From Myxococcota bacterium (GTDB lineage: Bacteria > Myxococcota_A > UBA796 > CAJQPC01), in contig DASCPX010000193.1 in the NCBI GenBank assembly GCA_036012755.1, forward strand, positions 12,365 to 76,364: a stretch of 64,000 nucleotides of DNA, in the 5' to 3' direction. Every line of letters begins with the position of its first letter. The stretch's first letter is position 1. Positions 1 through 36,344 of this stretch are shown piece after piece. The notes beneath the pieces were generated by a model. It was not told the DNA's origin. It did not search any database and saw only the letters and a list, made by a program, of their open reading frames with translations. A program made the translations under genes and the position numbers.

Positions 1-933
1 TGTCAGGAGCCACTGTCTCAGCCCGGTCATGACGAAGGGGGCCATCGCGATCCCGGCGACGACGAGGCACACGAGCCCGACGCCACCGACCACCAACCGG
101 CGCTCCGGAAAGGCCTTGAGGGCGAAGAGCCAGGCGGCCCCGACCGTGAGCACCAACATCATCGCGGGGTGGAAGCCCGAGAGGTAGGCGTAGGTGAAGG
201 GCGTGCCGCCAGCGACCCCCATGGCGATGGCCGGAGGCGCGAGGACGAGCACGCCGAAGGCCATGCCCGCGATCGAAGACCAAGGCGTCTCCTTGCTCAT
301 CAGGCCGGCGAGGCAGAACGCCCCCATGCCCAGGGCCGCGTACATGAGGCCGCCGACCCAGGCGAGGCAGGCGCAGGCAGGCAGCAAGCCCACCATCCAC
401 CAGCGCGGCTTGTCCCGCGTCGCCTCGGCGGCCATGGCGACCAGGAAGAGCCCCTCTGCCGGGTTGTGGTCGAGGCGCGCGAACTGGGTCGCTGCGACGT
501 GCATGGGGACGATGGCGACGAAGACCCCAGCCGCCAGGCCGGCCCACACGCCGAACAGCCGCCTGGCCAGATCCGCCGAGAGCAGGACGGTGATCACACC
601 GACGAGCAGGCCCGCGAAGCCGAGCCCGGCCTGGAAACCGAGGCTCTCCGTGGAGAAGCCGCCGCAGATCCAGGCGAAGAGCGCGAGCCACCCGTCCCAG
701 CCCGGCGCCCAGGGCACGGTGGCCCCCTCCGGGTAGCCGAGGAAGGGGTCCCACACGCTCGGCCAGGGAGGGTGCTCGAAGAAGCTCATCGCGCGGCGAA
801 GGTGGTAGGCGGAGTCCCCATCGCTGGGGATCAGCTGGCCGTCCCGGAAGTGCGTGGTGGGTCTGGACAGGCGGACGGCGACGGCGAGCAGCCCGGTCCC
901 GACGATGCCTGTCCGCCAGACGCGCTCGCTCAT
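1..933 (-). CDS. STT3/AglB/PglB-like oligosaccharyltransferase-type GT-C membrane protein, N-terminal 311 codons only (gene runs off the window start)
   Basis: Not in the ORF track because it is open at the window edge. My reverse-complement translation from ATG (comp. 933-931) is stop-free to nt 1: MSERVWRTGIVGTGLLAVAVRLSRPTTHFRDGQLIPSDGDSAYHLRRAMSFFEHPPWPSVWDPFLGYPEGATVPWAPGWDGW..., then many hydrophobic helices and TQFARLDHNPAEG. The D-x-x-YHLR first-loop motif followed by 'yPeG' is what I remember from STT3/AglB N-termini. The WWDYG region would lie outside the window. Confidence 0.6.
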   Translation of the reverse strand, partial: MSERVWRTGIVGTGLLAVAVRLSRPTTHFRDGQLIPSDGDSAYHLRRAMSFFEHPPWPSVWDPFLGYPEGATVPWAPGWDGWLALFAWICGGFSTESLGFQAGLGFAGLLVGVITVLLSADLARRLFGVWAGLAAGVFVAIVPMHVAATQFARLDHNPAEGLFLVAMAAEATRDKPRWWMVGLLPACACLAWVGGLMYAALGMGAFCLAGLMSKETPWSSIAGMAFGVLVLAPPAIAMGVAGGTPFTYAYLSGFHPAMMLVLTVGAAWLFALKAFPERRLVVGGVGLVCLVVAGIAMAPFVMTGLRQWLLT

Positions 934-954
934 GGGGCGGGATACTACGCCGCC

Positions 955-1668
955 ATGCTGAAACCGCTGCCCGATCCCCTCCTCAGCATCGTGATCCCCG
1001 TCTACGACGAGGAGGCCACCCTCGACGAGATCATCAGGCGGGTGGATGCCCAGCCCTGGCGCATGGAGATCCTCGCGGTAGACGACGGGAGCACCGACCG
1101 CAGCCTGGAGATCCTGCGCCGCCTCGAGGACGAGTACGACGACCTGCGCGTGTTCTCGATGCCGAAGAACAGCGGAAAAGGCGCGGCACTACGAGAGGGC
1201 TTCTCCCAGGCGCGAGGCGACATCGTGGTGATCCAGGACGCCGACCTCGAGTACGACCCGGGTGACTACGCGGCGCTGCTCGAGCCCATCCTCGACGGTC
1301 GAGCCCATGTCTGTTTCGGCAGCCGCTTCCTCGGCGGTCCCCACCGGGTCCTGAACTACCACCACTACCTGGCCAACCGGACGCTGACGAACCTGAGCAA
1401 CGTCTTCACCAACCTGAACCTCACGGACATGGAGACCTGCTACAAGGCCTTCCGCCACGAGGTCCTCGACAGCATCTCGATCACCGAAGACCGCTTCGGC
1501 TTCGAGCCCGAGTTCACGGCACAGGTCGCGGCCCACGGCTTCAGGGTCTACGAGGTGCCGATCAGCTACTCCGGGCGAGACTACGAGGAAGGCAAGAAGA
1601 TCACCTGGAAGGACGGCGTTCGAGCCCTCCGCGTCATCGTGACCTCCCGGTTCAAAGCCATGCGGTGA
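955..1668 (+). CDS. family-2 glycosyltransferase, polyprenyl-phosphate sugar synthase-like
   Basis: The real start is the internal ATG at 955 of track ORF 169..1668 (MLKPLPDPLLSIVIPVYDEEATLDEII). The upstream part of that ORF is antisense to the STT3-like gene. Motifs: SIVIPVYDE, AVDDGSTDRS, KNSGKGAALREGF, IQDADLEYDP (DxD), GSRF. It is divergent from the STT3-like gene with 21 bp between start codons. Confidence 0.9.
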   Translation: MLKPLPDPLLSIVIPVYDEEATLDEIIRRVDAQPWRMEILAVDDGSTDRSLEILRRLEDEYDDLRVFSMPKNSGKGAALREGFSQARGDIVVIQDADLEYDPGDYAALLEPILDGRAHVCFGSRFLGGPHRVLNYHHYLANRTLTNLSNVFTNLNLTDMETCYKAFRHEVLDSISITEDRFGFEPEFTAQVAAHGFRVYEVPISYSGRDYEEGKKITWKDGVRALRVIVTSRFKAMR

Positions 1669-1714
1669 AAGGCGCCGCAAAAGGGGATACTCCGCGGCCT
1701 TCCAGAGGTCCCCC

Positions 1715-3739
1715 ATGCTCCGCCTCCTCTTCGCTGCGCTGCTGTTGTGCTCGTCCACCGCTCAGGCGGAGGAGCCCACGGAGGAGCCGAGCTTCTTCGA
1801 CAAGACGGACGCGGCCTTCGCAGAACACGTGGTCGGACCGCTCGCGTCGGTCCTGTTCTTCGACATCGCCTTCTGGGACAACTCGCTCACGAAGGGAGAC
1901 GGCCTTGGCGAGACCGTCGGCGACGAGCGCGTCGTCGACTGGAGCGAAGACGACGGCTACGTCTTCCAGCAGGTGCTCAGGGCGCCGGTGGCGGAGCTCG
2001 AGGCCCGCGTCACAGGCGAGATCGAGGTCACCGACGAGGTCACCTGGTACCTCTCGCGGAACGAAGAGGGCATCAACGTCGGCAGCGTGCTCGCCCAGCC
2101 GACCAACATGATCGACGAGGAGTCGGAGCCGAACGAGGACGGGAACTACGTCATCGAGGGCTTCGCGCCCTTTCCGATCGAGGTCACCGTCGACGAAGAG
2201 ACAGGCGCCGTCACCGTCGTCGAGGCGAAGGAGATCCCGCTCCCCGATGGCTATGACATCGGGTCCCATGTGAGCGTCGAGCGCAACGGCATCGTGGCCC
2301 TCGACGGCGTCGAGTACGTCGTGGACGCCATCGACGGCGACGAGGCCGTGCTCATGGGCGCGTCGCGCAGTGAAGACCTGGTCCTGGACAACCCCCAGGA
2401 CATGAAGCTGCCCATCGTCGTGGTGTGGCTGGTGCTGGGCGCGATCTTCTTCACCCTGCGCATGAACTTCATCAACATCCGCGGCTTCGTGCACTCGCTG
2501 CAGGTCACGGCGGGCAAGTACGACAACCCGGACGACCCTGGCGAGATCAGCCACTTCCAGGCGCTGTCCTCGGCGCTGTCCGCCACGGTCGGGCTCGGCA
2601 ACATCGCCGGTGTCGCCGTGGCTGTCGGCGTCGGCGGCCCCGGCGCGGTCTTCTGGATGATCTGCGCCGGCTTCCTCGGCATGAGCTCGAAGTTCGCCGA
2701 GTGCACCCTGGGCCAGATGTACCGGACCATCGGTCCCGACGGCAAGGTCATGGGCGGTCCCGTGCGCTACCTCGAGGCCGGGCTCAAGGAGCTCGGCATG
2801 GGCGCCATGGGCAAGGTCCTGGCCGTGGTCTTCGCCATCATGTGCATCGGCGGGAGCCTCGGCGGCGGGAACATGTTCCAGGCCAACCAGAGCTACGCGG
2901 CGGTGGCAGAGGTCGTGCCGATCTTCGCCGACTACGCCTGGCTCTACGGCCTCGTGCTCGCCGGCATCGTCGCGCTGGTGATCATCGGCGGCATCAAGTC
3001 CATCGGCAAGGTCGCCGGCATCATCGTGCCCGTGATGTGCGGCATCTACGTGCTCGCAAGCCTCTGGATCGTCGGCTCCCACGCCGCCGAGCTGCCAGCT
3101 GCCTTCTCGCAGATCATCGGCGAGGCCTTCACCCCCGAAGCCGGCAAGGGTGGCCTCATCGGCGTCCTCATCATCGGCTTCCAGCGCGCGGCCTTCTCGA
3201 ACGAGGCCGGCATCGGCTCCGCCGCCATCGCCCACTCCGCGGCGAGCACGGACGAGCCGGTCCGCGAGGGTATCGTCGCCCTCCTCGGCCCCTTCATCGA
3301 CACGATCATCGTCTGCACGATGACCGGGTTGGTGGTCGTCATCACCGGCGCCTACAAGGGCGAGGCCCAGGGTGTCGTCATGACGTCAGAGGCCTTCGGC
3401 TCCGTGCTGAGCTGGTTCCCCCTGGTGCTGTCGCTGGCGGTCGTGCTGTTCGCCTTCTCCACGATGATCAGCTGGAGCTACTACGGCGAGCGGTGCTGGA
3501 GCTACCTCTTCGGCGACAAGCCGCTGGTAGGCATGATCTACAAGGTCGTCTTCCTCGCCGCAGTCTTCTTCGGCGCGGTCTTCAACCTGGGCTCGGTGCT
3601 CGACTTCTCCGACCTGATGGTGCTCGGCATGGCTTTCCCGAACATCCTCGGCGTCGTGCTCTTGAGCAACAAGGTCAGGGCGGCCCTCGACGACTACTGG
3701 GGTCGGCTCAAATCGGGCCAGATGAAGGTCCGAAAGTAG
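1715..3739 (+). CDS. alanine/glycine:cation symporter (AGCS) family transporter with long N-terminal extension
   Basis: 674 aa. Core AGCS block GEISHFQALSSALSATVGLGNIAGVAVAVGVGGPGAVFWMICAGFLGMSSKFAECTLGQMYR, then polytopic to the C-terminus. It has a signal-peptide-like start (MLRLLFAALLLCSSTAQA) and about 230 extra N-terminal residues. Confidence 0.85.
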   Translation: MLRLLFAALLLCSSTAQAEEPTEEPSFFDKTDAAFAEHVVGPLASVLFFDIAFWDNSLTKGDGLGETVGDERVVDWSEDDGYVFQQVLRAPVAELEARVTGEIEVTDEVTWYLSRNEEGINVGSVLAQPTNMIDEESEPNEDGNYVIEGFAPFPIEVTVDEETGAVTVVEAKEIPLPDGYDIGSHVSVERNGIVALDGVEYVVDAIDGDEAVLMGASRSEDLVLDNPQDMKLPIVVVWLVLGAIFFTLRMNFINIRGFVHSLQVTAGKYDNPDDPGEISHFQALSSALSATVGLGNIAGVAVAVGVGGPGAVFWMICAGFLGMSSKFAECTLGQMYRTIGPDGKVMGGPVRYLEAGLKELGMGAMGKVLAVVFAIMCIGGSLGGGNMFQANQSYAAVAEVVPIFADYAWLYGLVLAGIVALVIIGGIKSIGKVAGIIVPVMCGIYVLASLWIVGSHAAELPAAFSQIIGEAFTPEAGKGGLIGVLIIGFQRAAFSNEAGIGSAAIAHSAASTDEPVREGIVALLGPFIDTIIVCTMTGLVVVITGAYKGEAQGVVMTSEAFGSVLSWFPLVLSLAVVLFAFSTMISWSYYGERCWSYLFGDKPLVGMIYKVVFLAAVFFGAVFNLGSVLDFSDLMVLGMAFPNILGVVLLSNKVRAALDDYWGRLKSGQMKVRK

Positions 3740-3742
3740 CCG

Positions 3743-5311
3743 GTGGATCCGTCCATCCTGTCGCTGCTCCCCGCGCTCATCGCGGTGGTGCTGGCGCTGA
3801 CGACCCGGAACGTCATCCTGTCGCTCTTCGCCGCGGTCTGGACCGCGGGCACGATGATGCATCCGGTCTCCTTCTCGCTGCCGGTCGTCGAGTACACGGT
3901 CTCGGCGTGGAACCCCCTGGCCGGCCTCTACCACTCGGTCGACCCCTACATCGTGGACGCCGCCGCGGACCGCGACAGCATGAAGGTCACGATCTTCTCG
4001 CTCTTCGTGGGCGGCGCGGTCGGTGTGATGGCCAAGGGCGGTGGGACCGCCGCCCTGGTCGAGCGCATCGTGAAGCACGCTCGGAGCCGCCGAAGCGGCA
4101 TGCTGGTGACCTGGCTCTCCGGCATGCTCGTCTTCTTCGACGACTACGCGAACTGCCTCGTCGTGGGCGCGTCGATGCGCCCACTGTGCGACAAGCTGAA
4201 GATCTCGCGCGAGAAGCTCGCCTACCTCGTCGACTCCACCGCGGCGCCGATCGCGAGCATCGCGCTGGTGTCCACCTGGATCGGCTACGAGGTCGGGCTG
4301 ATGGGCGACGGGCTCGAGATGGCAGGTATCGAAAAAGACGCCTACGCCTTCTTCATCGAGGGCATCGGCTACCGCTTCTACTCCATCTTCACCATCGTCT
4401 TCGTGGGTGCGGTGGCGTTCTTCGGCCGCGACTTCGGACCGATGAGAGCGGCCGAGGAGCGGGCGATGAGGGCCCCCGAGGCGGAAGGGGAGCTCGCCCA
4501 GAAGGACACGAGCCCGGCCCTGCCGCTCTTGGCAATCCTCCCCATCCTGACGCTGGTCGGAGTCACCTTCGGCCACCTCTACGTCGTCGGCAGCGCAGCC
4601 GCGGCCGAGGAGGGGCTGGCCAACCCGGCGCTGTTCGAGATCATCGGCGGCGCCGACGGCTACGACGCGATGCTGCAGGGCTCGCTGGCTGGAATGGTCG
4701 TGGCGATGATCCTCGCCGTAGTGCTGCGGGCGCTGTCGCTGACGGACACCTTCGAGGCCTGCATCAAGGGCATGACGACGCTGTTCCCGGCCCTGGTCGT
4801 GCTCATGCTCGCCTGGGCGCTCGGCTCCGGCATGGCCGACCTGCACGCCGCAGACTACCTCGTCTCGGTCCTTCAGGACTCGCTCCACCCGGCGCTGGTG
4901 CCGACCGTCGTCTTCGTTGTGGCCGCCGGCATCGCCTTCGCGACCGGCACGAGCTTCGGCACGATGGGCATCGTGATGCCGATCGTCATTCCGCTGTCAT
5001 TCGCGCTGGCGCCACACGATCCGGTGATCGCGCTGGCCGCCAGCGGCGCGGTGCTCTCGGGGGCCTGCTGGGGTGACCACTGCTCGCCGATCTCGGACAC
5101 GACCATCCTCTCCTGCGTCGGCAGCGACTGTGACGTGACGGCCCACGTGAAGACCCAGCTGCCCTACGCGATGGCCTGCGGCGCCATCAGCATCGTGCTC
5201 GGCACGCTCCCCGTTGGTTTCGGCGTCCCCCTGTGGATCGTCATCCCCCTCGGGCTGGCGGCTTGCGTGCTCACGGTCCGCTTCGCCGGGAAGCAGCCTC
5301 AGCCCGCCTGA
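3743..5311 (+). CDS. NhaC-type Na+/H+ antiporter family membrane protein
   Basis: 522-aa polytopic protein. The GTG start lies 4 nt after the symporter stop. The N-terminus SLLPALIAVVLALTTRNVILSLF and the overall layout resemble the NhaC family. This call is from memory. Confidence 0.7.
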   Translation: MDPSILSLLPALIAVVLALTTRNVILSLFAAVWTAGTMMHPVSFSLPVVEYTVSAWNPLAGLYHSVDPYIVDAAADRDSMKVTIFSLFVGGAVGVMAKGGGTAALVERIVKHARSRRSGMLVTWLSGMLVFFDDYANCLVVGASMRPLCDKLKISREKLAYLVDSTAAPIASIALVSTWIGYEVGLMGDGLEMAGIEKDAYAFFIEGIGYRFYSIFTIVFVGAVAFFGRDFGPMRAAEERAMRAPEAEGELAQKDTSPALPLLAILPILTLVGVTFGHLYVVGSAAAAEEGLANPALFEIIGGADGYDAMLQGSLAGMVVAMILAVVLRALSLTDTFEACIKGMTTLFPALVVLMLAWALGSGMADLHAADYLVSVLQDSLHPALVPTVVFVVAAGIAFATGTSFGTMGIVMPIVIPLSFALAPHDPVIALAASGAVLSGACWGDHCSPISDTTILSCVGSDCDVTAHVKTQLPYAMACGAISIVLGTLPVGFGVPLWIVIPLGLAACVLTVRFAGKQPQPA

Positions 5312-5357
5312 AGCAGGGCGGCGAGCCCCTCTCCCGAGCTCAGGGTGAAGGGGGACA

Positions 5358-7394
5358 TCACTGCGGCGTCAGCCACCCCTCCTGCTCCAGCACCCGAGCG
5401 ATCTCCGAGGCCAGCACCTGGTGGCCTCGCCGGCTGAGGTGGCAGTCGTCCAGGAAGATGTTGGGGTCCTCTTGCTCGTGGAGGTACGCCGCGGCGTCGA
5501 AGAAGAGCCCACCGTGCTCCTCGGCCAGCTCGCGCTGCATCTCGGCGTACTCGGCGAGGGGCCCGGGGTCCGGGTTGAGGCCCTCGGTCATGAGCAGCAC
5601 CCGGGCGCCCACCCCTTCGGCGGAGGCGAGCACGGCGCGGAGGTTGTCGCGGGCGTCGTCCACCGGCACGGCGACGCCGGTGTCCCGCCGGGCCAGGGCG
5701 AGCACCGTCGTCTTGAACCCGAAGTACAGGCTGCTGCGCTCCATCAGCGGCGTGCCCAGATCCTGCCCGGGCCGGTAGCGCGCGTAGAGCGTCGAGTAGG
5801 GCACCGCCGACTCGGTGAGCAGGTCGTTGTGGGCCACGTACACCGCCAGGATGTCGGGCTCGAGGGTCTCCATCTGGGACTCGGCGTAGAGCCGCACGTG
5901 CAGGGTGTTCCAGCCGCCGACGCCCTGGTTGACCACCTCCCAGCCCTCGAGACGCTGTTCGAGCTCGGCGGGCCAGAACAGCTCGATGTCGTCCATCTGG
6001 AAGGCCCCGCCGGTGCTGCTGCCCCCGAGCGCCACGATGCGCGGCGTGTCGCTGGGCGGAGGGGGGCGCACGGGGAAGCCGTCGCTGGGGTAGCGACGGT
6101 ACTGGCGCAGCTCCATGAGCTCCTGGAACTCGAGCCCGGCTCGCTGCCAGCCCTCGCTCACGGTCCAACCCCGGGACAGGGCGCTGGTCCGGATGGCGAT
6201 CTCGCCGCAGACCAGGACGAGGGCAAGCAGCCCGTAGCTGGCCAGGACGCGGCGAGGGAAGGGGTTCTTGTTCACCCAGGCCAGCCCGGCCCACGGGAGC
6301 AGGGGAAGGCCCACGGCGAGCCAGTCCACGAGCCCTGCACGGGAGCCGATCCAGGGCACGCAGACCAGGAGCGCGGCCAGGCCGGCGCAGAGGGCCCCGG
6401 TGCGCCACAGGGGCCCCCGAGCCCAGGCGATCAACGCCGCGAGCGCCGCGGGCAGGGTGCTCAGCAGCAAAGGACCGGTGAGGCTGGCCACCTCCAACAG
6501 CCGCATGCGGTCGAGCACCACCCGCATGTCCAGCGCGAAGAGCAGGGGCCCTGCGCACAGCGGAAGGAGCGCCAGGGCCCGGCGGTCCCGGCCGAGGAGG
6601 CCACCCAGCGCGGCGAAGAGCAGGGCCAGCGGCAAGGCCAGCCAGCCGCTGCGCAGGCCAGCAGCGAAGGACCCTCCTCCCCAGCCCTCGATCTCCACCG
6701 AGCGGAGCTGGATGCGTCGGATGCCGCCGCTCAGCACCAGCGGCCCGGCGTCGTGCCCACCAGTGCAGCGGCCCACGGCCTGGCCGGACTCGAGGAGCTC
6801 CACGCCCCCCTCGCGCACGCGCAGCACAAGGTCGAGCTCCTCCGGCGGCGCCACGTCGCTGGTGCAGCTCAGGCCGTTGAGCCCGAGGTAGGTCCCGCGG
6901 GTGCGGTCCACGAGCACGCTCGCGCCCTCCTGGAGGTTCTGGATCGAGAGCCCGGGCTTCTGGCCGAAGACCGGCGGAGGACCGCCGCCGGAGTCGCCGC
7001 CGGGAGCGGCGCCCGGGCCTCGAGCACCGGCAGGTCCGGGCGGAGGACCGCCAGGCCGCGGGCCCGCAGGCGCCTGGGGACCCGCGGCCTCGAGGTCCAC
7101 GCCAAACTGGACGCGCAGCTGGCCGCCATCGGGGACGCGGGCCCGGACGCGGATGTCGCCCTCGTCGAAGCGCAGGCCGACCGGAGACAGGGCCCGGTAG
7201 AACCACAGGTCCACCGTCCCCGGGCGCTCGGCCAGCGGTCCGGCCATCCACGCCGTCTCGATCGGGACCGAGCTCTCACGCTCATCCCAGGAGCTTGGAT
7301 CCGCCTGGCCCATCGCACCGGAGAGCGCCCACCACAGGCTCAGCCCCCACGCGGCGCCGCAGAGGGCCCCGAGCGCCCGCCAGGCGTGCCTCAC
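5358..7394 (-). CDS. membrane-anchored SGNH/GDSL-type hydrolase with Pro/Gly-rich linker
   Basis: 678 aa. It has an N-terminal signal/anchor and a PG-rich tract (GPQAPAGPRPGGPPPGPAGARGPGAAPGGDSGGGPPP). A central block of about 6 hydrophobic helices follows. The C-terminal SGNH domain shows IVALGGSSTGG (block I), VNQGVGGWN, and DDCHLSRRGHQ (DxxH block V). Confidence 0.75.
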   Translation of the reverse strand: MRHAWRALGALCGAAWGLSLWWALSGAMGQADPSSWDERESSVPIETAWMAGPLAERPGTVDLWFYRALSPVGLRFDEGDIRVRARVPDGGQLRVQFGVDLEAAGPQAPAGPRPGGPPPGPAGARGPGAAPGGDSGGGPPPVFGQKPGLSIQNLQEGASVLVDRTRGTYLGLNGLSCTSDVAPPEELDLVLRVREGGVELLESGQAVGRCTGGHDAGPLVLSGGIRRIQLRSVEIEGWGGGSFAAGLRSGWLALPLALLFAALGGLLGRDRRALALLPLCAGPLLFALDMRVVLDRMRLLEVASLTGPLLLSTLPAALAALIAWARGPLWRTGALCAGLAALLVCVPWIGSRAGLVDWLAVGLPLLPWAGLAWVNKNPFPRRVLASYGLLALVLVCGEIAIRTSALSRGWTVSEGWQRAGLEFQELMELRQYRRYPSDGFPVRPPPPSDTPRIVALGGSSTGGAFQMDDIELFWPAELEQRLEGWEVVNQGVGGWNTLHVRLYAESQMETLEPDILAVYVAHNDLLTESAVPYSTLYARYRPGQDLGTPLMERSSLYFGFKTTVLALARRDTGVAVPVDDARDNLRAVLASAEGVGARVLLMTEGLNPDPGPLAEYAEMQRELAEEHGGLFFDAAAYLHEQEDPNIFLDDCHLSRRGHQVLASEIARVLEQEGWLTPQ

Positions 7395-7519
7395 GCTGGA
7401 GCTCGCCCGCTGCGCTGGCGCCGTCCCGACATGCGGCAGAGGATACGCGCAGCGGCCCCCGCGCAGCGCTGGGGGGACCCTTCCGGTACCCTGGGCGGGC
7501 TCTCGGAGGAGGCCCCCGG

Positions 7520-10027: not shown

Positions 10028-11133
10028 ACCGCCGCCGCTGGCTCGGACGCGTCGGCCTGGTGGTCGGCGGCCTGCTCGTGGGCGCCGTGGCCGCGGAGCT
10101 CGGTGCGCGCATGCTCCAGCCCCGAGGCGCCTCGGACCTGCTCTTCAACGCACCGGACAACAGCCCCCAAGGGCTCTACTCGGGGAGCCGCGAGCTCTTC
10201 TCCCTGCCTACGCCGGGCTTCACCGCGACCCAGACCTCCCTGGGGTACTCGGTCGACCTGCGCATCAACAGCCACGCCCTCCGCGGCCCCGAGCTCGGCG
10301 CGAAGAGCCAGCCCCGCTGGCTGGCGATCGGGGACTCCTTCACCTTCGCCGCCCAGGTCGCCGAAGAGGACAGCTTCACCGTGCTCTCCTCGGGGGCGCT
10401 CGGCCTCGAGGTCCTCAACGCCGGGGTCGACGGCTACGGCACGTGGCAGGCAACGCGCCGCTACGAGCTCCTCGCCCAGGAGCTGGACCTGGACGGGGCG
10501 CTGCTGACCTTCTTCGTCGGCAACGACCTGACCGACAACGACCACTGGCCGAACACGCGCCGCATCGCGGAGAACTTCGTCGAGGGGGAGCCGCTGGACC
10601 GGCTGCAGCGGGACCCCCTGACCGCGTGGCTGTCTCGCCACTCCTACCTCTACGGCCGGCTCCAGGTGCGCCGGGCCGCCGAGGAGCTGGCCAGCGGCAA
10701 CTCCCCCAACCAGCTCCGCTGGCGCATGGAGCTCGAGCTCTTCCACGAGGACGGGGCCCATCGCCTCCGCGACATGGGCCGGACCACGCAGCAGGAGCTG
10801 CGCGACCTGCGGGACAAAGCGCGACGCAACGGCGACGGGCTCCTCGTGGCGGTGGCGCCCCCGGCCTTCGCGGTCGACCAGGGCCGTGTCGCGCCGACCT
10901 TCGAGCTCGTCGGCCTCGACGCCGGGCAGGCCCGGGTCGAGGCCCCAGAAGAGGCGCTCATGGAGATCCTGGAGAGCGAGCGCATCTCCGCCTGCAACCT
11001 CGGCCCTCCCTTGAGGCAGGCGGAGAGCCAGGGGGTGCAGACCTACCTGGAGTACGACGGCCACTGGACCGTCGAGGGCCACCGGGTCGTCGCGGAGACC
11101 CTCGCGGCGTGTTGGGAGGCCCGGAGTCCCTGA
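10024..11133 (+). CDS. signal-anchored SGNH/GDSL hydrolase
   Basis: This is the C-terminal part of track ORF 8779..11133. Motifs: WLAIGDSFTFAAQV (block I), NAGVDGYGT, FFVGNDLTDN, EYDGHWTVEGHR (block V-like). The start is uncertain. CTG at 10024 overlaps the upstream TGA and gives NRRRWLGRVGLVVGGLLVGAVAA as a signal anchor. Alternatives are GTG 10060 and ATG 10111. Confidence 0.7.
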   Translation: MNRRRWLGRVGLVVGGLLVGAVAAELGARMLQPRGASDLLFNAPDNSPQGLYSGSRELFSLPTPGFTATQTSLGYSVDLRINSHALRGPELGAKSQPRWLAIGDSFTFAAQVAEEDSFTVLSSGALGLEVLNAGVDGYGTWQATRRYELLAQELDLDGALLTFFVGNDLTDNDHWPNTRRIAENFVEGEPLDRLQRDPLTAWLSRHSYLYGRLQVRRAAEELASGNSPNQLRWRMELELFHEDGAHRLRDMGRTTQQELRDLRDKARRNGDGLLVAVAPPAFAVDQGRVAPTFELVGLDAGQARVEAPEEALMEILESERISACNLGPPLRQAESQGVQTYLEYDGHWTVEGHRVVAETLAACWEARSP

Positions 11134-11135
11134 GC

Positions 11136-12851: not shown

Positions 12852-12894
12852 CGGCGGACCATACCCCGCCTCAACTCCATGCCATCATCCGCCC

Positions 12895-14658
12895 ATGGCC
12901 CTGGCCCGTCGCTGCTGGCCCCTGCTGGTCTTGGCCCTGGGCGCGCTGCTGCCGATGGCCAGGGTCCTGGCGGGCCCCCGCAGCCTGCTCGTCGGCACCG
13001 AGCTGAGCGATGTCTACAAGCACGCCTGGGCCTTCTGGCACGTCACCGAGACCCTCGGCTGGCCCCGCACGACGGCGCTGAACCACCCCGACGGCGGCCT
13101 CTTCCTGGACATGATGTGGGCGCCGGCGCTCTTGATGCTCCCCGTCACGGCGGTGGGCGGCGCCGTGCTCTCGGCCAACCTGTGGATGTGGCTGTCGCTG
13201 TGGCTGGTCGGCGCCTGCACCTGGTGGCTCGCGCGGGAGCTCGTCGGCGACGGGGCCGGGGCGCTGCTCGGCGGGCTCGCCGCCCAAACCGCCACCCCGC
13301 TCCTCGGCTACCCGATGCTCAGCGGCGTGCACGAGCGCCTGGGGGTCTGGGTCTTTCCGCTGGTGGTGCTCATGCTGCTCCGCATCCGCGACCGGGGGGG
13401 GATCTGGGAGGTCGCCGTGGCCGCGGGCGGGCTGGGCTTCGTCGCCCTGGGCTGCCAGGCCTACGGGCTCTACGCCGGGGGCCTCCTGCTCATGGGCCTG
13501 CCCCTGTGGCTCGGCCACCCCCGCGACTGGCTGCCGCGGCTGAAGCGACTCGCCCCGGTGGGCCTCGCCCTGCTCCTGGTGATGGGCGCGGTCTACGCGG
13601 TCTCCTACACCCTCACCACCGATCCGGAGAGCCTGGTCCCGCAGCCCGGTCGCCTCGGTGAGGGTCCGAAGCTGATCCTGGACGCGGCCACCGTGGGCGG
13701 ACTGCTGGACCCCCGCGTCGCCGCCTCGGTCCAGCCGACCCTAGGCGGTGACGAGCTCTACGTGCTCACCTACCTGGGCTGGATGGGGCTCGGCCTGGCG
13801 CTGGTGGGCGCCGCGCTCGCCCGCGGAGGCAGACGCTGGGACGTGCGCGGCCTGACCGCGCTGGCGCTCTTGATGGCGCTCCAGAGCCTTGGCCCCCACT
13901 TCCAGGTCGGCGCCCAGCACTTCGTGAACCCGCTGTTCGTGGCGATGGCGGCGGTGATCCCCCACTACGGCAGCAACCCCCCGGTCTGGCAGAACGTGCT
14001 CGCGGTCGCCCCCTTGCTGGCCCCGGGGATCGCCGCCGCGATCGAGCGCGCGCCGCGAGGCTCCTGGGCGCTCGCGGGCCTCGCTTGGGTGGCCATCGTC
14101 GCGGAGCGCGCCGCCACCCTGCCGGTGGCCTTCCCCCTGCCCGTCACCGCCGCCGAGGTCGCCGAGCCCTACGCCGCGATCGTCGAAGAGGGCGCCGTCG
14201 CCGAGGTTCCGCGCATCTACCGGGACCTCACCACCGCACACGGCTCGCTCTTCATCAGCCAGACCGCGCACGAGCGGCCGGTCCCACACACGATCAACAT
14301 CGGCGCGAGCCCATGGGACAGCTACGCGCCCCTGGCCCGCGGGGTTGCTCGGGACTGGGGCGAGGCCGCGGCCTGCCTCAACGGCGCGGGCTACCGCTAC
14401 CTCGTCGTCCACCGGGACCACTTCAGCGGACAGAGCGCCGCCGCAGAGGCCATCGACGGGCTGTCCCGCGCGGCGTCGGTGGTCGCGGACGATGGCGTCG
14501 TCGCGGTCTTCGATCTCGGGCCCGTGCCTGGGGAGACCACCCACGCCGGCCCCGCGCTGTCCCGCTCCAGCATGGAGCTCGTCCAGCAGGGGCTCGCCGG
14601 TCGTCCCCTCCGCGTCGGCGACCTCCGACCCGACTGGACGCGCTGCCCCGCCCGCTGA
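12895..14658 (+). CDS. polytopic membrane protein, GT-C-like (paralog 2 of 3)
   Basis: Start ATG at 12895 inside track ORF 12490..14658 (MALARRCWPLLVLALGALLP). First-loop motif LLVGTELSDVYKHAWAFWHV. It is polytopic with a soluble C-terminal domain. It is divergent from paralog 1 with a 43-bp spacer. Confidence 0.65.
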   Translation: MALARRCWPLLVLALGALLPMARVLAGPRSLLVGTELSDVYKHAWAFWHVTETLGWPRTTALNHPDGGLFLDMMWAPALLMLPVTAVGGAVLSANLWMWLSLWLVGACTWWLARELVGDGAGALLGGLAAQTATPLLGYPMLSGVHERLGVWVFPLVVLMLLRIRDRGGIWEVAVAAGGLGFVALGCQAYGLYAGGLLLMGLPLWLGHPRDWLPRLKRLAPVGLALLLVMGAVYAVSYTLTTDPESLVPQPGRLGEGPKLILDAATVGGLLDPRVAASVQPTLGGDELYVLTYLGWMGLGLALVGAALARGGRRWDVRGLTALALLMALQSLGPHFQVGAQHFVNPLFVAMAAVIPHYGSNPPVWQNVLAVAPLLAPGIAAAIERAPRGSWALAGLAWVAIVAERAATLPVAFPLPVTAAEVAEPYAAIVEEGAVAEVPRIYRDLTTAHGSLFISQTAHERPVPHTINIGASPWDSYAPLARGVARDWGEAAACLNGAGYRYLVVHRDHFSGQSAAAEAIDGLSRAASVVADDGVVAVFDLGPVPGETTHAGPALSRSSMELVQQGLAGRPLRVGDLRPDWTRCPAR

Positions 14659-14661
14659 GCT

Positions 14662-15705
14662 TCAGCCCGGGCGGTTGCTGGTGGCGCAGCGGAAGCCGCT
14701 GGTCTTGCGCCGGACCTCAGCCTGGAACTGGTGCCGCTCCCCCGCCGGGTTGGGCCGGAGGTCGGTGAAGTAGCTGCCGCCGCGCACGGCCACGTAGATC
14801 GTCGGGGCCTCGACGCGGAGCCCCTCCCAGGTCTCCCCGACGAGGCGGCCCTCCGCGGCCTCCCAGGTCTCGACGCGGCCGTCCGACGTCCACTCCCAGA
14901 CATTGCCGAAGAGGTCCTCTGCGCCGACGTGGCTGCGGCCTCCAGGGAAGGAACCCACCGGGGAGGTGGAGCGGTGGCCGTCGCTGTCGTCGAAGCCCTC
15001 GGACTCGATGGTGCCGTGGTTGAAGCGCGCCCCGTCGTAGTCGTCGCCCCACGGATAGACGCCGTCGCCGGGCCCCAGCGCTGCCAGCTGCCACTCGGCC
15101 TCTGTAGGCAGGCGCTTGCTCGCCCAGCGGCAGTAGGCCTGGGAGTCGTACCAGCTCACGAGCACCACCGGGTGGTCCCCGGTCCCCGGCGCGTAGTCGC
15201 CGCCGGACCAGTTCCAGTCCTCGTCGGAGTCGATCTCGCCGACCTGGGGCGGCCGGTAGCCCGTCTCGTCGAGGAACACCTTGTAGGCCTCGCGCGTGAC
15301 CTCCGTCCGGTCGATCCAGAAGGCCTCGACCCGGGCCAGTCGTGGCTCGAGCTGCATGCCGTCGCGCATCTCCCAGCGCTCGAAGCTGCGATCGGCGGGA
15401 CCGATCCGGCCCGGAAGACCGCCGGGACCTGGCGGCGGGCCGGCGCCTGGAGGAGGACCGGCGGCGCCTCCGGGCCCGGGTGGCCCGGGGCCGGGGGGCG
15501 CGCCGTGCGGGCCCGGCCCGCCCTCCTTCGAGGGGACCTCGTCCGCGTCGCGGGCCTCCAGGAAGCTCGGCGTGCCCTCGACGGGCTCGAGCCACTTCGG
15601 GCCCAGCGTCACCACCCCCTCCGCGACCGGCACCATGCCCTGGACGACCTCGACCGCAGCGGGGTGACCAGCCCCTCCGGAGGTGCATGCCAAGAGCTCG
15701 ATCAC
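14662..15705 (-). CDS. FGE-sulfatase (SUMF1/EgtB-like) domain lipoprotein with PG-rich linker
   Basis: GTG at 15705 forms a GTGA overlap with the stop of the upstream gene. N-terminus MIELLACTSGG (short lipobox-like). Linker GGPGPHGAPPGPGPPGPGGAAGPPPGAGPPPGPGG. FGE-type blocks: HPVVLVSWYDSQAYCRWASKRLPTEAEWQ, GNVWEWTSD, RGGSY..., GFRCA. The start could instead be the internal ATG (MVPVAEG). Confidence 0.75.
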   Translation of the reverse strand: MIELLACTSGGAGHPAAVEVVQGMVPVAEGVVTLGPKWLEPVEGTPSFLEARDADEVPSKEGGPGPHGAPPGPGPPGPGGAAGPPPGAGPPPGPGGLPGRIGPADRSFERWEMRDGMQLEPRLARVEAFWIDRTEVTREAYKVFLDETGYRPPQVGEIDSDEDWNWSGGDYAPGTGDHPVVLVSWYDSQAYCRWASKRLPTEAEWQLAALGPGDGVYPWGDDYDGARFNHGTIESEGFDDSDGHRSTSPVGSFPGGRSHVGAEDLFGNVWEWTSDGRVETWEAAEGRLVGETWEGLRVEAPTIYVAVRGGSYFTDLRPNPAGERHQFQAEVRRKTSGFRCATSNRPG

Positions 15706-16472
15706 GGGCTCGGCTCCGGGGCGTAGGCGCAGCGGAAGCCAGTCGTGAAGGCCACCCGCGAGGGCTCGGCCGGCTCTCGGTGGGCGCAGGCGCAGTAGCT
15801 GGGGAGCGAGGTGAAGGAGCCGCCCTTGAGCACCCTCCAGGTGCCCTCCTCGGGCCCGCTCGGGTCGGTGGCGTCCCCAGTGGTGCCCTCGCGGTGGTAC
15901 CAGTCCGCGGTCCACTCCCAGACATTGCCAGAGGCGTGGAGCAGCCCGTGCGGGGAGCGCAGGTCCGTCGCCTGGGAGGACACGGGCTGCGTGCCCACCG
16001 ACTGGGCGAGTCCGTGCTTGCCGTAGTTGGACCAGGCCGGGCTGACCTCCTCGCTGTCTCCCCAGGGGAAGCGCCGCTGACCGTCCCCGCAGGCCGCGTG
16101 CTCCCACTGGGCCTCGGTGGGCAGGTGACCGCCCCGGGCCCGGCAAAAGGCCTCGGCCTCGAACCAGGTGACGGCGACCACAGGGTGGTCTCCGGAGCGC
16201 CCGGCGGCGCGCAGCTCGGCGCCCGCGCCGTTCGGATGCTCCTGGGCCCAGGCCCAGCCCGCCTCGCTCCAGTGGGCCACTGTCTGGTAGCCCTCCTTCG
16301 CCCAGCTCTCGAACTGGGTGACGCTCACCTCCGCGCGGTCGATCCGGTAGTCGGACAGGGCGACCGTGCGCGGCGGCGCGTCCGGCTCCTGGGCGCCTCC
16401 TTGCTCGAAGCTCCCGGCGGGGATCTCCACGACGTCCATCCCCATCATCAGCGCCAGGAGCGTGAAGGCCAC
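15702..16472 (-). CDS. FGE-sulfatase (SUMF1/EgtB-like) domain protein
   Basis: 256 aa. Blocks: MDVVEIPAGSFEQGG, HPVVAVTWFEAEAFCRARGGHLPTEAQWEHA, GNVWEWTADWY, VLKGGSF, GFRCA. Confidence 0.85.
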   Translation of the reverse strand: MAFTLLALMMGMDVVEIPAGSFEQGGAQEPDAPPRTVALSDYRIDRAEVSVTQFESWAKEGYQTVAHWSEAGWAWAQEHPNGAGAELRAAGRSGDHPVVAVTWFEAEAFCRARGGHLPTEAQWEHAACGDGQRRFPWGDSEEVSPAWSNYGKHGLAQSVGTQPVSSQATDLRSPHGLLHASGNVWEWTADWYHREGTTGDATDPSGPEEGTWRVLKGGSFTSLPSYCACAHREPAEPSRVAFTTGFRCAYAPEPSP

Positions 16473-16501
16473 GCCCGAGCCTACCGTGCAAGGATGCCTC
16501 G

Positions 16502-18094
16502 ATGAGCCCGCCCGCCGCCGACAAGCGCTTGCTGCTGGCCGGGGCGGCCGCAGTCCTGGTGCTGGTCCTCTGGTCCGCTCGGGGCGTGCTCCTCGATCCC
16601 GCCGGGCTCATCCTGGGGGACCGCCCGGACACGATCCATCACGTGTGGGGCCAGTGGTGGATGGCTCAGTCGGGCGCCGAGGGAGGCCTCAGCACCTGGA
16701 CCAGCTACCCGAGCGGCGAGTACGGCTCGGTCCTCTGCCCCCTGGGGAACCTGCTCGTCCGCCCCGTCGAGTGGCTCGGCGGCGCCGTGCTCGCCTACAA
16801 CCTGCTGTCGGTGCTCTACCTGCTCTTCGACGCCCTCGCGGTGGGGCTCCTGGCCCGGCGGGTGGCCCGGAGCGACCTCGCCGGGGTCGTGGCGGCTCTC
16901 GCGATGGTCGTCGCCCGGCCCGTGATCGCACACGTCGCCCTCGGCAACACGGAGGGCGCCGCCATCGGCTGGGTGGCGCTGGTGGCCTGGGTCGGCCTCC
17001 CCTGGGCCCGCGGAGAGAACCGCCTCGGCGCCGTCGTCGGCCTGCTCTGCGGCGTCGCGGTAATCGAGAACCCCTACAGCCTCCCGATCCTCGCCATCGT
17101 GGCCCCGGCGCTGGCGCTGCGGCGGCTGGTCGCCGGCCCCGGTCGCTGGCGGCAGCTCGCCCTCGCGGCGGTCGCTGGTCCGATCCTCCCCGGCCTCCGG
17201 CTCTGGCAGGTCGGCGAGGGCCTCGGCGGCAACTTCATGCGCCACGCCGCGCCCTTCGACTGGCTGGGCTTCACGTGGACGGTCTGGGATCCGGACTGGA
17301 GCCTGGCCGGCTGGCAGCTCCTCTGGCCCTGGCCGCGCATGCAGTTCCCCGAGATGACGCTCGAGCTCTACGAAAACGGCGGCTTCGCCTTCGTCGGCCT
17401 GGTCGCCCTCTGCCTGGCCCTGGGCGGTGGTGTCCTCCAGTGGCGGAGGGCCCTGCCCTGGCTCGGGCTGGCGCTCCTCTTCTTCCTCCTGGGCCTGGGC
17501 TCGACGCCCCTCGGCGACTCGGGACCGCCCGGGCTCTTCCTGCTGGCGAACTCGGTGATCGTGCAGGTCCTGCCGGCCCTCACACAACCCCTGCGCTTCC
17601 TGGCCTTCGGGACCGGCGCGCTCGCGGTGGCCGCGGGGGTGGGCGCGGCCCGGCTGCCCTCGAGGCCGTGGGTCGCGCCCCTGTTGCTCGCGCTCCTGGT
17701 CGTCGAGGGCTTCACCCTCGGCGGCCCCTCGATCCGGATCCCCGTGATCGACACCCGCGGCACCGAGTGCCTGGCTGCGCTCGAGGGGCCGGTCCACACC
17801 CTGACGCCGACCGGACCCACGGCATCGGCCAACGGCGCCGCCCTGCTGCTTCAGCTCGTGCACGGCCAGCCCGGGACCCACGTGGGCGTAGGGGGGTGGA
17901 CCCGAGTCGACGAGGCGGACGCCCGCTCCCTCGAGGAGCGAGGCGTGCGCTGGGTCCTCGTGCCCGAGGAGGGGCTCGCCGCGACGACCTGCGGCGGCTG
18001 GAGCGCCCTTCCGCTGAGCGCCTGGACCCCCGAGCTGGAGCAGCGCTTCGCCCCGGGCCAAGGCCCCAGCCCGCAGCCCCGTCCGCTGCGCTGA
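16502..18094 (+). CDS. polytopic membrane protein, GT-C-like (paralog 3 of 3)
   Basis: 530 aa. First-loop motif LILGDRPDTIHHVWGQWWM. It is polytopic with a short soluble C-terminal region. It is divergent from the FGE pair with 29 bp between start codons. Confidence 0.65.
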   Translation: MSPPAADKRLLLAGAAAVLVLVLWSARGVLLDPAGLILGDRPDTIHHVWGQWWMAQSGAEGGLSTWTSYPSGEYGSVLCPLGNLLVRPVEWLGGAVLAYNLLSVLYLLFDALAVGLLARRVARSDLAGVVAALAMVVARPVIAHVALGNTEGAAIGWVALVAWVGLPWARGENRLGAVVGLLCGVAVIENPYSLPILAIVAPALALRRLVAGPGRWRQLALAAVAGPILPGLRLWQVGEGLGGNFMRHAAPFDWLGFTWTVWDPDWSLAGWQLLWPWPRMQFPEMTLELYENGGFAFVGLVALCLALGGGVLQWRRALPWLGLALLFFLLGLGSTPLGDSGPPGLFLLANSVIVQVLPALTQPLRFLAFGTGALAVAAGVGAARLPSRPWVAPLLLALLVVEGFTLGGPSIRIPVIDTRGTECLAALEGPVHTLTPTGPTASANGAALLLQLVHGQPGTHVGVGGWTRVDEADARSLEERGVRWVLVPEEGLAATTCGGWSALPLSAWTPELEQRFAPGQGPSPQPRPLR

Positions 18095-18142
18095 GGCCGC
18101 GAGAGAAAAAAGCGGCCGCGCCCATGACAGGCGCAGTAAACA

Positions 18143-19071
18143 GTGTGTATACATGCGCCGATGTTCGCCTCGATCCTAGCTTGTACACCGGCCCCAGAGG
18201 GCTACGACCTGTCCACCCAAGAGCTCGAAGAGGAGCTCGAAGAGGAGCTCGAAGAGGCCGACAGCGCCGAACCGCGGGACAGCGACCCACCGACCGACAC
18301 CGGAGAGGACGACCCGCAAGAGGACAGCGACCCGCCAGACCCAGAGGGCTGGATCGACGAGGTCGGCCTCTACATCAACCTCGGAGACTCGGTCGCGGCC
18401 GGCTACGCGCCGGCGGCGAGTACGGCTACGCCTGGCTGCTGGACGAGAACCGGGGCTGGTCGAGCTACGAGGGCCAGGACCTCTCCACGCGCTCCGCCGC
18501 CCAGGTGAAGCACATCGCCGACTCCGGAGCGACCAGCGCCGAGATCCTCGAGAACCTGCGCTCGGCCTCGCTCCCGAGCGTCTCAGGCGAGGTGGTCGTG
18601 ACCATCAGCGCCGGCGGCAACGACTTCAACGACGAGATCACCACGATGGTGTTCTCGGCCTACACCGAGGCCGCGGCAGCCGGGGTTCGAGAGAACCTCG
18701 CGGCGATGATCGACGAGCTCAGGGACCACTACCCGGAGGCCCGGATCTACGTGATGAACATCCAGGATCCGACTGGCGGAACCGGAACCGTACCCGCGGG
18801 CCTGGACGAGGGCTTCTGCAGCTTCGTCGACCAGTGGGGCGCCTACATCGGACCGACGGTGGTCGAGAACCTGGGCATCATGAACGCCGCGATCGCCGAG
18901 GAGACCGCCACCCAGGGAGCGGAGCTCGTGGACTACAACGACTGGTTCCTGGACCATGGCCTCAACACCAGCGACGGCTGGATGAGCGACGACTGCGCCC
19001 ATCCAACCGACGAAGGTCACCACGAGATCCGCCGGCTCATCTGGTCCAGCTGGACCGGGGATCTCTACTGA
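18143..19071 (+). pseudogene. SGNH/GDSL lipase-like lipoprotein, reading frame broken near 18407-18415
   Basis: Track ORF 18143..18508 supplies the lipoprotein signal, an acidic linker and block I (MFASILACTPAP...INLGDSVAAGYA). The rest lies in the frame of track ORF 16366..19071: GGEYGYAWLLDEN...TISAGGNDF...DDCAHPTDEGHHEI. Rejoining needs a 1-nt gain in gcgccggcggcgag. This could be a sequencing error rather than true decay. Confidence 0.7.
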
Positions 19072-25507: not shown

Positions 25508-25537
25508 TCCGTTGGGTCCGGCAGGAGGGTCCACCCA

Positions 25538-33739: not shown

Positions 33740-33769
33740 CCCCGCAGGCTACCGCGCGGACCCCTCACG

Positions 33770-36230: not shown

Positions 36231-36344
36231 CGCCGGCCGACGTATTCCGTTCCGAGCCGGACGGGGACCACGCCCCTGCCAGATTCTGACCTCCCCCCCT
36301 CCGATTCCCACCTCACGCTCCACCCGTCTCGATAAGAAGCCTGC

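Follow-up and report, generated by a model that had tools for sequence, protein, structure and literature searches.

Glycosyltransferases with the GT-C fold build or decorate bacterial envelopes and glycoproteins from outside the membrane and are hard to spot by sequence. In archaeal N-glycosylation AglJ is a dolichyl-phosphate hexosyltransferase and AglB the oligosaccharyltransferase (OST); the mycobacterial EmbA/B/C, AftA-D and PimE/Mpt enzymes provide the precedent of divergent GT-C paralogs with neighboring genes, whose products presumably work in succession or as hetero-oligomers on one envelope polymer; and SGNH enzymes (AlgX/AlgJ, PatB/Ape and the C-terminal domain of OatA) add or strip O-acetyl groups on envelope polymers. 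The logic that joins a family 2 glycosyltransferase (GT2), a flippase and a GT-C enzyme is established for the Gtr, ArnC/ArnT and pentofuranose systems (PMC11127046). The locus analyzed here occupies the first 19 kb of a 64-kb stretch of DNA, called the window below, from an uncultured Myxococcota bacterium (contig DASCPX010000193.1, positions 12,365 to 76,364, assembly GCA_036012755.1). An earlier note, made from the letters of this DNA, had read these 19 kb as one coordinated supercluster for envelope modification. The reading that we favor, with a confidence only a little better than even, is that the 19 kb form a mosaic of modules, in which GT-C paralogs combined with SGNH acyl editing lie beside a separate, archaeal-style OST module. 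What is new is a large unmodeled GT-C family with reproducible gene partners, beside a possibly functional bacterial OST of the AglB type. A literature search returned no paper describing the gene set or the GT-C family, in agreement with the earlier statement that no described pathway matches these genes.

The conserved core of the locus comprises g06-g07, polyA, polyB and polyC, with g05 (an SGNH gene described below) linked more loosely, while the OST/GT2 pair, two transporters and a pair of proteins with a formylglycine-generating enzyme (FGE) domain lie outside it. The core features, in window coordinates, are the following.

7520..10027, + strand: g06, an 835-residue protein with a 12-transmembrane (TM) region resembling the major facilitator superfamily (MFS) and a spermidine-synthase-like (SpdSyn-like) domain (NF037959, 67.1 bits against a cut-off of 40 bits)
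10024..11133, + strand: g07, an N-terminally membrane-anchored SGNH enzyme (ALGX, 5e-10; start CTG at 10024 or GTG at 10060)
11136..12851, - strand: polyA (g08), canonical member of an unannotated family with a predicted GT-C fold (profile family, AlphaFold, Foldseek)
12852..12894: divergent polyA/polyB spacer, 43 bp, with a -10-like TATGGT 8 nt upstream of the polyA start
12895..14658, + strand: polyB (g09), divergent paralog of the polyA family (family HMM 2.4e-28, hhalign 98%)
16502..18094, + strand: polyC (g12), most divergent paralog of the polyA family (family HMM 5.8e-28, hhalign 95%)

The gene models themselves are secure. Base composition is Myxococcota-like (~72% GC, ranging from about 65 to 77% along the window), and analysis of GC content at third codon positions (GC3) gave a single coding frame across 1-22 kb, with models equal to those of the earlier note. 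Independent gene calls on metagenome contigs of the same population (99.95-99.98% identity) reproduced all genes and coordinates. Searches with Pfam and NCBIfam profiles, which had been proposed as a check, bore out each predicted domain assignment and left polyA, polyB and polyC without any match. Membership holds at the superfamily level (GT-C, polyprenyl-phosphate GT2, SGNH blocks and NF037959), and does not hold for the named GT-C families, AlgX, FGE or aminopropyltransferases.

For the three polytopic proteins the absence of matches extends to E<=0.01-0.1, with PMT, PMT_2, STT3, ArnT-like, DUF2079 and PTPS_related models included. They had been described as mutually similar, which is not borne out by BLASTP (best E = 0.06, not significant) and is borne out by profiles: a hidden Markov model (HMM) of 42 diverse family members matches polyB over profile positions 8-567 and polyC over positions 7-467, both at ~1e-28, and the hhalign values listed above are probabilities of relationship with the polyA family. 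Because profile search, family HMM and hhalign all link them, polyA, polyB and polyC are taken, on sequence profiles, to be paralogs that have diverged within a single large family without annotation. Starting from polyA, an exhaustive profile search recovered 11,324 representative clusters at E<=1e-3, of which 888 remain at E<=1e-30, with nearly all matches full length. This overturned the picture of a tiny family given by a word-indexed search, which had returned 8 matches. Metagenome-assembled genomes (MAGs) carry family members at at least two or three separate loci each, in contexts that vary widely. The locus exposes, in short, a large GT-C family that current libraries (Pfam, NCBIfam) do not cover.

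The GT-C fold of the polyA family is confidently predicted. The AlphaFold model of polyA (pLDDT 80.8, pTM 0.85) was compared with the Protein Data Bank (PDB) by Foldseek, and 23 of the 23 matches at E<=1e-3 (8e-8 to 1e-3) were GT-C enzymes, with TM-scores of ~0.5; they include STT3 from the yeast and human OST, AglB, PglB, AftA, DPY19, ArnT and Pmt4. Comparison of the paralogs with the PglB, ArnT and PMT folds had been named beforehand as a check, and for polyA it yielded GT-C enzymes only. At the residue level, the aspartate of the first periplasmic loop, the hallmark catalytic position of GT-C enzymes, is D46 in polyA, is invariant in the 42 diverse members, and occupies the same column in polyB (D39) and polyC (D43). 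In addition to this residue, polyB keeps W45, PxG and H459..P462 and loses the equivalents of E152, Q160, W201, R362 and R368, while polyC keeps W49, PxG, R365 and H454..P457 and loses those of E152, Q160, W201 and R362. The earlier count of four GT-C-type proteins therefore stands, g01 (the OST-like gene described below) by family models, polyA by predicted fold, and polyB and polyC by profile homology together with the first-loop aspartate. The four are not one sequence family, since hhalign found no relation between the polyA family and g01. A search of PDB sequences with the family profile gave no match, and weak PMT or PMT_2 matches in 3 of the 42 members, with PTPS_related matches in scattered members, provide only a remote placement in the GT-C clan.

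How the core compares with described GT-C systems follows from these results. As in the GT2/flippase/GT-C systems, a GT2 resembling dolichyl-phosphate mannose synthase (DPMS), ArnC and GtrB lies near GT-C-fold proteins, and lipid-phosphate sugars would be expected at the outer face of the membrane. In contrast to those systems, the window has no GtrA-type flippase, and its GT2 is without C-terminal TM helices and has an OST as its partner. Its GT-C genes, which form a set of three, are members of an unannotated family and have SGNH and SpdSyn-like genes linked to them. The mycobacterial sets share the side-by-side arrangement of divergent paralogs, and AftA and EmbB are among the structural matches of polyA; there is, however, no sequence relationship, and the window proteins have 530-590 residues and a small C-terminal periplasmic domain and belong to a Gram-negative envelope. 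PMT/ArnT-like enzymes (Pfam PMT, PMT_2) are approached through the weak matches of the few family members mentioned above and through neighboring MopE and FG-GAP proteins, whereas polyA, polyB and polyC have no PMT or PMT_2 match at E<=0.01 and no MIR domains.

In order to define which genes travel together, we rely on ~60 fetched loci, designated L001 and so on. In L001 (GCA_046766275.1), the nearest relative with an assembled locus, g06-g07, polyA and polyB-polyC recur with proteins 61-79% identical to those of the window, and polyB and polyC are adjacent and overlapping, with no FGE genes between them. Within ±10 kb of polyA in L001 (~8 kb beyond either end of the core) there is no g05, transporter, GT2, OST or FGE gene. 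L023, which has a g06 ortholog of 52% identity, has an unrelated 7.7-kb upstream flank without g05, GT2 or OST and is cut downstream by the contig end. Since only the g06-g07, polyA and polyB-polyC genes recur in L001, and no homolog of g01 occurs in any of the ~60 loci, the claim of one coordinated 19-kb supercluster is not supported. A rearranged set is found in L011, again with three GT-C genes (one polyA-like, a second paralog and an ortholog of polyB) and three SGNH genes (two GDSL genes and a homolog of g07), together with genes for a B12 radical-SAM and an FG-GAP protein. Multiple GT-C genes, in tandem or nearby and of the same family or PMT_2-like, are also present in L004, L016, L018, L019 and L066.

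A separate set of six g07-homolog loci, selected solely on assembled sequence length, has the following neighbors of the g07 homolog.

L067: a divergent polyA-family gene (3e-54), a small GDSL gene and a 678-residue g05 ortholog
L064: a small GDSL gene and a 678-residue g05 ortholog
L066: a polyA-family gene and a PMT_2-like gene
L069: two further GDSL genes
L065, L068: neither GT-C nor g05

In these six loci a polyA-family gene is immediately adjacent in two and a g05 ortholog in two, and three (L064, L067, L069) have an extra SGNH gene within 2 kb; no donor-synthesis gene is consistently adjacent to the core or g07 genes of L001 and the six loci. At the hub of this pattern is g07, whose association with polyA-family GT-C genes and other SGNH proteins recurs in flexible form. 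The recurring partners of the polyA family, namely a membrane-anchored SGNH enzyme dedicated to it, more SGNH proteins, extra GT-C proteins, SpdSyn-like proteins and B12 radical-SAM proteins, make its function testable.

Further neighbors of family members were recorded in the same loci. In each of two distant loci a polyA-like gene is immediately preceded by a B12-binding radical-SAM gene that overlaps or abuts it (L004:6905-8422 and L011:8385-9932). In L020 an Acyl_transf_3 membrane O-acyltransferase (8818-9987) directly precedes a distant, 757-residue family member, with two sulfatases 3-5 kb downstream, and this acyltransferase is a further link of polyA-family GT-C proteins to acyl modification. 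FG-GAP or TIG repeat proteins are encoded next to polyA-family members in L011 and L013.

The earlier note had listed three SGNH genes. All three are real and have intact catalytic blocks, and the third is truly frameshifted, as had been said. In addition to g07 they are:

5358..7394, - strand: g05, a 678-residue membrane protein with a C-terminal SGNH domain (Lipase_GDSL_2, 3e-15)
18143..19071, + strand: g13, a secreted, frameshifted SGNH lipase-type gene (Lipase_GDSL_2, 5e-23 after repair)

For g07 there are at least 144 homologs of 35-63% identity. In 46 sequences the residues GDS 103-105, G134, GND 166-168 and D345-G-H347 (within D-G-H-W) are invariant, and the AlphaFold model (pLDDT 96) has a generic SGNH fold, its best match being CgnD, ahead of TesA and acetylxylan esterases. 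The protein begins with a short positively charged stretch and a single TM helix, from which the positive-inside rule would place the catalytic domain in the periplasm. The coupling to g06 that had been proposed holds for the overlap of stop and start and not for the start codon. The proposed start at 10024 is a CTG, within a CTGA that overlaps the g06 stop, where its L001 counterpart has ATGA. The 'RRW' N-terminus is shared by homologs, and the next canonical start in the window is the GTG at 10060. Either g07 initiates at CTG or it now starts at GTG 10060.

Like the SGNH O-acetylation enzymes, g05 and g07 are membrane-anchored or membrane-fused and predicted to be periplasmic; the likeness includes the ALGX match and the D-x-H-W motif of g07 and the membrane-domain-plus-SGNH architecture of g05. 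The window differs in having no MBOAT or Acyl_transf_3 partner, and g07 differs from AlgX in its normal Ser...Asp-His order, which is not the AlgX order, and in its generic esterase fold matches. We considered g07 as an AlgX-like acetyltransferase and rejected this: the ALGX match covers only positions 26-132 of 268 in the profile, and the top 50 of the fold search contain generic SGNH esterases and no AlgX, AlgJ or PatB. In g05 the predicted topology is a large N-terminal extracytoplasmic region, ~6 TM helices and the C-terminal SGNH domain, in which the blocks 'GGSST', 'AHND' and 'DDCH' are all present. Its membrane domain has no Pfam match, and the SGNH domain is predicted to be periplasmic, since 'KNPFPRR' precedes the last TM helix. 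In g13 a -1 frameshift lies near 18408-18415, directly after block I (GDSVAAGY), with the blocks 'GDS', 'GGND' and 'DDCH' otherwise intact. The frameshift is identical in three independent assemblies from different samples, which differ from the window by 5-10 single-nucleotide polymorphisms per 20 kb, and is therefore a genuine allele rather than an error of sequencing. The gene appears to be decaying, and none of the fetched loci has an ortholog.

The fused polytopic/SpdSyn-like protein g06 had been recognized correctly, since its NF037959 score exceeds the curated cut-off, and it is the most conserved protein of the core (79% identity to the L001 ortholog). In aminopropyltransferases the acid of GGG(D/E)G discriminates decarboxylated S-adenosylmethionine (dcSAM), and D-x-x-D-P is catalytic. 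Compared with SpeE of T. thermophilus (1uir), g06 has FGTGV for GGGEG and DVATY for DLTDP, so that only the first Asp is kept. With both the GGG(D/E)G acid and the second D-x-x-D-P aspartate lost, aminopropyl transfer from dcSAM by g06 is doubtful. Hydropathy and charge signals for the membrane side of the SpdSyn-like domain conflict. Membrane-fused SpdSyn-like proteins, uncharacterized and in another operon context, have been proposed to aminopropylate non-polyamine substrates (PMC11237479). In two loci a canonical soluble SpeE (Spermine_synth 1e-35, with the N-terminal tetramerisation domain) is encoded ~0.7 kb downstream of a polyA-family gene (L013:12426-13406 and L014:4196-5137); these two loci may be one lineage. 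The tight g06-g07 coupling and the SpeE genes near polyA-like genes in L013 and L014 argue for a real link to SpdSyn-like enzymes. The link is not a general one, since the ~40 remote fused MFS/SpdSyn genes found in a metagenome scan with g06 have no polyA-family neighbor.

The second module stands at the left edge of the window and consists of two divergent genes.

<1..933, - strand: g01, the N-terminal 311 residues of a putative 680-residue OST of AglB/STT3 type (TIGR04154, AglB_L1), the remainder lying left of the window
934..954: divergent g01/g02 spacer, 21 bp, which contains GGGATACT
955..1668, + strand: g02, a soluble GT2 of 237 residues and polyprenyl-phosphate glycosyltransferase type (PF00535 Glycos_transf_2, 5e-36)

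The full 680-residue g01 was recovered from a contig of the same population. Against TIGR04154 (archaeo_STT3) the fragment scores 1e-23 and the full-length protein 6e-42 (144 bits over profile positions 4-590 of 831, with a subfamily cut-off of 450 bits). Pfam AglB_L1 matches at 1e-9 and passes its cut-off (38.9 against 23.6 bits), and Pfam STT3 was not reported at E<=0.001. The STT3/AglB/PglB OST enzymes are marked by a D-x-D in the first loop and by WWDYG beyond the final TM helix. In g01 'TWDHGHW' aligns to 'WWDYGHW' of A. fulgidus AglB, with W, D and G kept and the first W and the Y altered, and the first loop reads 'SDGDSAYHLRR'. Family models and the alignment of the WWDYG region uphold the earlier reading of 1..933 as STT3/AglB-like, and g01 is taken, from its residues, as a member of the STT3 superfamily in which the signature motif is altered. 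The AglB-like gene is directly followed on its strand (L021:6568-7937, upstream of the window) by genes for a 270-residue HAD-like hydrolase (weak Pfam Hydrolase match, 1e-4) and a Macro-domain protein, which may belong to the OST module.

The assignment of g02 to the polyprenyl-phosphate-sugar-synthase type likewise holds, the closest solved relatives being Pyrococcus DPMS (5mlz, 2e-19), ArnC (2e-17) and GtrB (8e-10) over residues 10-213, the whole catalytic domain. The best NCBIfam models are AglJ (4e-31), ArnC (5e-20) and PpgS (2e-18), all below their equivalog cut-offs (AglJ 108 against 325 bits). The 'DAD' (DXD) motif is present, and no TM helix is predicted in the 237 residues; short soluble polyprenyl-phosphate GT2 forms exist, e.g., PpgS and DPM1. 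As g02 adjoins the OST and lies 10 kb from the core, the OST is its most economical partner, rather than the three paralogs. The pair resembles archaeal AglJ/AglB in that the best models of g01 are archaeo_STT3 and AglB_L1, the best model of g02 is AglJ, and the two genes are divergent with a 21-bp spacer. It differs in its bacterial host, in scores far below the equivalog and subfamily cut-offs, in TWDHG for WWDYG, and in having no further Agl-type glycosyltransferases or flippase near it. If active, an AglB-type OST with an AglJ-like GT2 in bacteria would extend archaeal-style N-glycosylation to the Myxococcota and might be of use in glyco-engineering.

Taken together, these results suggest how the two modules might work. 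In the OST module g02 would load a sugar onto polyprenyl phosphate at the cytoplasmic face, and after flipping the OST would transfer the lipid-linked glycan to secreted proteins, a mechanism that would mirror the archaeal AglJ/AglB logic. In the core module the GT-C paralogs would use polyprenyl-phosphate-linked sugars at the periplasmic face and would transfer them to an acceptor outside the cytoplasm, acting one after another or as a hetero-oligomer, with polyA as the fully equipped catalytic copy and polyB and polyC as specialized or accessory copies. The acceptor would be surface or secreted repeat proteins, or a surface glycan, and O-acyl groups of the core product would be attached or taken off by the periplasmic SGNH enzymes. 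The presence of repeat proteins beside family members (MopE in the window, L012, L013 and L065; FG-GAP/TIG in L011 and L013) is a weak hint of protein glycosylation. The overall logic of lipid-linked sugar, GT-C transfer and acyl editing is already established elsewhere, and the organisms are uncultured. Under a bolder version, which we regard as decidedly improbable, the core would be an undescribed envelope-decoration machine of Myxococcota built on the new GT-C family (at least ~900 clusters), in which a hetero-oligomer of the three paralogs decorates surface repeat proteins or a surface glycan with an aminoalkyl- or methyl-modified sugar supplied via g06, with SGNH acyl editing and with an adjacent TWDHG OST performing N-glycosylation from polyprenyl monophosphate.

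Several points weigh against the mosaic reading. The complete five-gene core was seen in two lineages only, plus a rearranged third; the synteny sample of ~60 loci is small and was partly ascertained through polyA itself; and the count of polyA-family neighbors among the ~40 remote fused MFS/SpdSyn genes is 0. Among the three paralogs polyA alone has a structure model, the fold of polyB and polyC resting on homology, and the loss of nearly invariant residues means that polyB and polyC may be non-catalytic. The generic SGNH fold of g07 does not separate esterase from acyltransferase, the 144 bits of g01 are far under the curated cut-off of its nearest family and are accompanied by the altered TWDHG, and sugar-nucleotide or other donor-synthesis, priming-transferase, flippase and polymerase genes are absent from the 64 kb and from the 10 kb upstream. 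The loss of the equivalents of E152, Q160, W201 and R362 in both divergent paralogs, and of R368 in polyB as well, would also suit the idea that the GT-C-fold paralogs are not all, or not at all, glycosyltransferases and serve instead as partners or scaffolds or transfer a non-sugar group from a lipid carrier, and so would the lack of any sequence-level relation to characterized GT-C families and of donor-synthesis genes nearby. We hold this to be very unlikely, given that the first-loop aspartate is invariant in the 42 members and retained in all three paralogs and that every significant structural match of polyA is an active glycosyltransferase. That the co-localization is largely fortuitous, reflecting the abundance of multi-copy envelope families (GT-C, SGNH, FGE-domain, MopE) in large genomes, would explain why the polyA family is multi-copy in each MAG and its gene contexts are so varied, and why many GDSL and FGE genes lie in unrelated flanks. 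It is hard to reconcile with the direct juxtaposition of a g07-like and a polyA-family gene in five or more independent arrangements (window, L001, L011, L066 and L067), with the g07/g05 adjacency in two further lineages (L064 and L067), or with the overlap or coupling of g06-g07 and polyB-polyC; by rough estimate, the expectation that a member of a six-copy family lies no more than 10 kb from any one gene of a 10-Mb genome is ~1%, and we consider chance a highly improbable explanation.

In the single pathway of the earlier note the GT2 (955..1668) feeds all four GT-C proteins, the SGNH and FGE-domain proteins act on one product, and the spacers impose coordinated control. All the parts do lie within 19 kb, the 64 kb hold no other polyprenyl-phosphate GT2, the combination of GT2 and GT-C is an established one (PMC11127046), and the tight divergent spacers are real, that between polyA and polyB having its length conserved in L001. 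We nevertheless find this pathway unlikely: the core of L001 occurs without the GT2, OST, g05, FGE pair and transporters within ±10 kb of polyA, the 7.7-kb upstream flank of L023 lacks the GT2, OST and g05, no g01 homolog was seen in the ~60 loci, two unrelated transporters part the GT2 from the core, and the FGE-domain proteins are without catalytic Cys residues. A polyamine- or aminoalkyl-linked modification, in which the SpdSyn-like domain makes or binds the moiety, the MFS-like part moves it and the GT-C and SGNH proteins install and edit it, would give meaning to the translational coupling of g06 to g07, to the strong conservation of g06 (79%), to the soluble SpeE genes ~0.7 kb downstream of polyA-family genes in L013 and L014, and to the proposal that fused SpdSyn-like proteins aminopropylate non-polyamine substrates (PMC11237479). 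The altered catalytic residues of g06, the conflicting signals on the membrane side of its domain, the lack of a SpdSyn gene at most polyA-family and g07-family loci and the possibility that L013 and L014 represent one lineage all tell against such chemistry, and we judge it distinctly unlikely. The mosaic of a GT-C/SGNH core beside a separate OST module is retained as the preferred reading.

Outside the core and the OST module, the first 22 kb contain the following.

1715..5311, + strand: g03, a Na:Ala symporter (PF01235, 7e-125), and g04, an NhaC antiporter (PF03553, 1e-59)
14662..15705, - strand: g10, an FGE-domain protein (PF03781, 7e-46) with neither catalytic Cys
15702..16472, - strand: g11, an FGE-domain protein (PF03781, 8e-47) without the equivalent of human Cys336
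19130..21571, - strand: g14, a lipoprotein (PF11617, 1e-51) whose six Cys-rich repeats are of the MopE type and whose C-terminal domain is AgmC_N-like

The two transporters between the GT2 and the core are as the earlier note had placed them, their PF01235 and PF03553 identities being clear; they are absent from all related core loci and are bystanders. The N-terminal extension of g03 (1715..3739, + strand), ~270 residues with a signal-peptide-like start and no Pfam match, is unusual for Na:Ala symporters. The two FGE-domain proteins announced at 14662..16472 are present (PF03781 at ~1e-46 each), are 36% identical to each other and are translationally coupled, as g10 overlaps the stop of g11. 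Formylglycine-generating enzymes bind Cu(I) through a pair of cysteines, C336 and C341 in the human enzyme. In g11 'GGSFTSLPSYC' stands against 'GGSYMCHRSYC' of human FGE, so that the first Cys of the pair is absent, and the 64-kb window contains no sulfatase; a canonical FGE role in sulfatase maturation was rejected for g10 and g11 on both counts. The pair is a lineage-specific insertion between polyB and polyC. FGE-sulfatase-domain genes were seen 1-9 kb from polyA-like, g06 or g07-like genes at L009:1765-2997, L013:4-831, L023:2-1231 and L068:4230-5609, a recurrence that may be due to chance, the family being very abundant in such genomes.

The lipoprotein g14 is the sole MopE-repeat protein in the 64 kb, and its C-terminal domain resembles the N-domain of the gliding-motility protein AgmC (NF047640, 3e-26, below the cut-off). 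It is possibly an associated surface protein, of uncertain membership in the locus. MopE-repeat proteins are also encoded within ~4 kb of polyA-family or g07-like genes at L012:5272-7845, L013:4875-6728 and L065:11473-13809; these could be acceptor substrates or simply members of an abundant family.

The very short divergent spacers had been given as 21, 43 and 29 bp, and these lengths are exact. The polyA/polyB spacer of L001 (9959-10000) has 42 bp and TAGGAT 7-8 nt 5' of the polyA start; the TAnnnT hexamer is kept, which suggests leaderless transcription. A 16-nt motif, GGGATACT(A/C)CGC(C/G)GCC, lies just 5' of both g02 (939-954) and g03 (1684-1699), and could be a shared -10-like promoter element of leaderless or short-leader transcripts. 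A regulatory motif shared by the spacers was rejected, as the 64 kb hold no GGATACT beyond these two sites and, with 1.8 expected, there is no enrichment.

Farther along the window, 25508..26527 (+ strand) encodes pentapeptide repeats fused to an Ion_trans_2 channel domain, and 32537..33748 (- strand) a CotH kinase-family protein. Finally, 36336..38877 (+ strand) encodes a helicase of the XPB/ERCC3 type with an XPB damage-recognition domain, followed by a DUF790 protein (1e-91), an arrangement that resembles the archaeal XPB-Bax1 helicase-nuclease pair.

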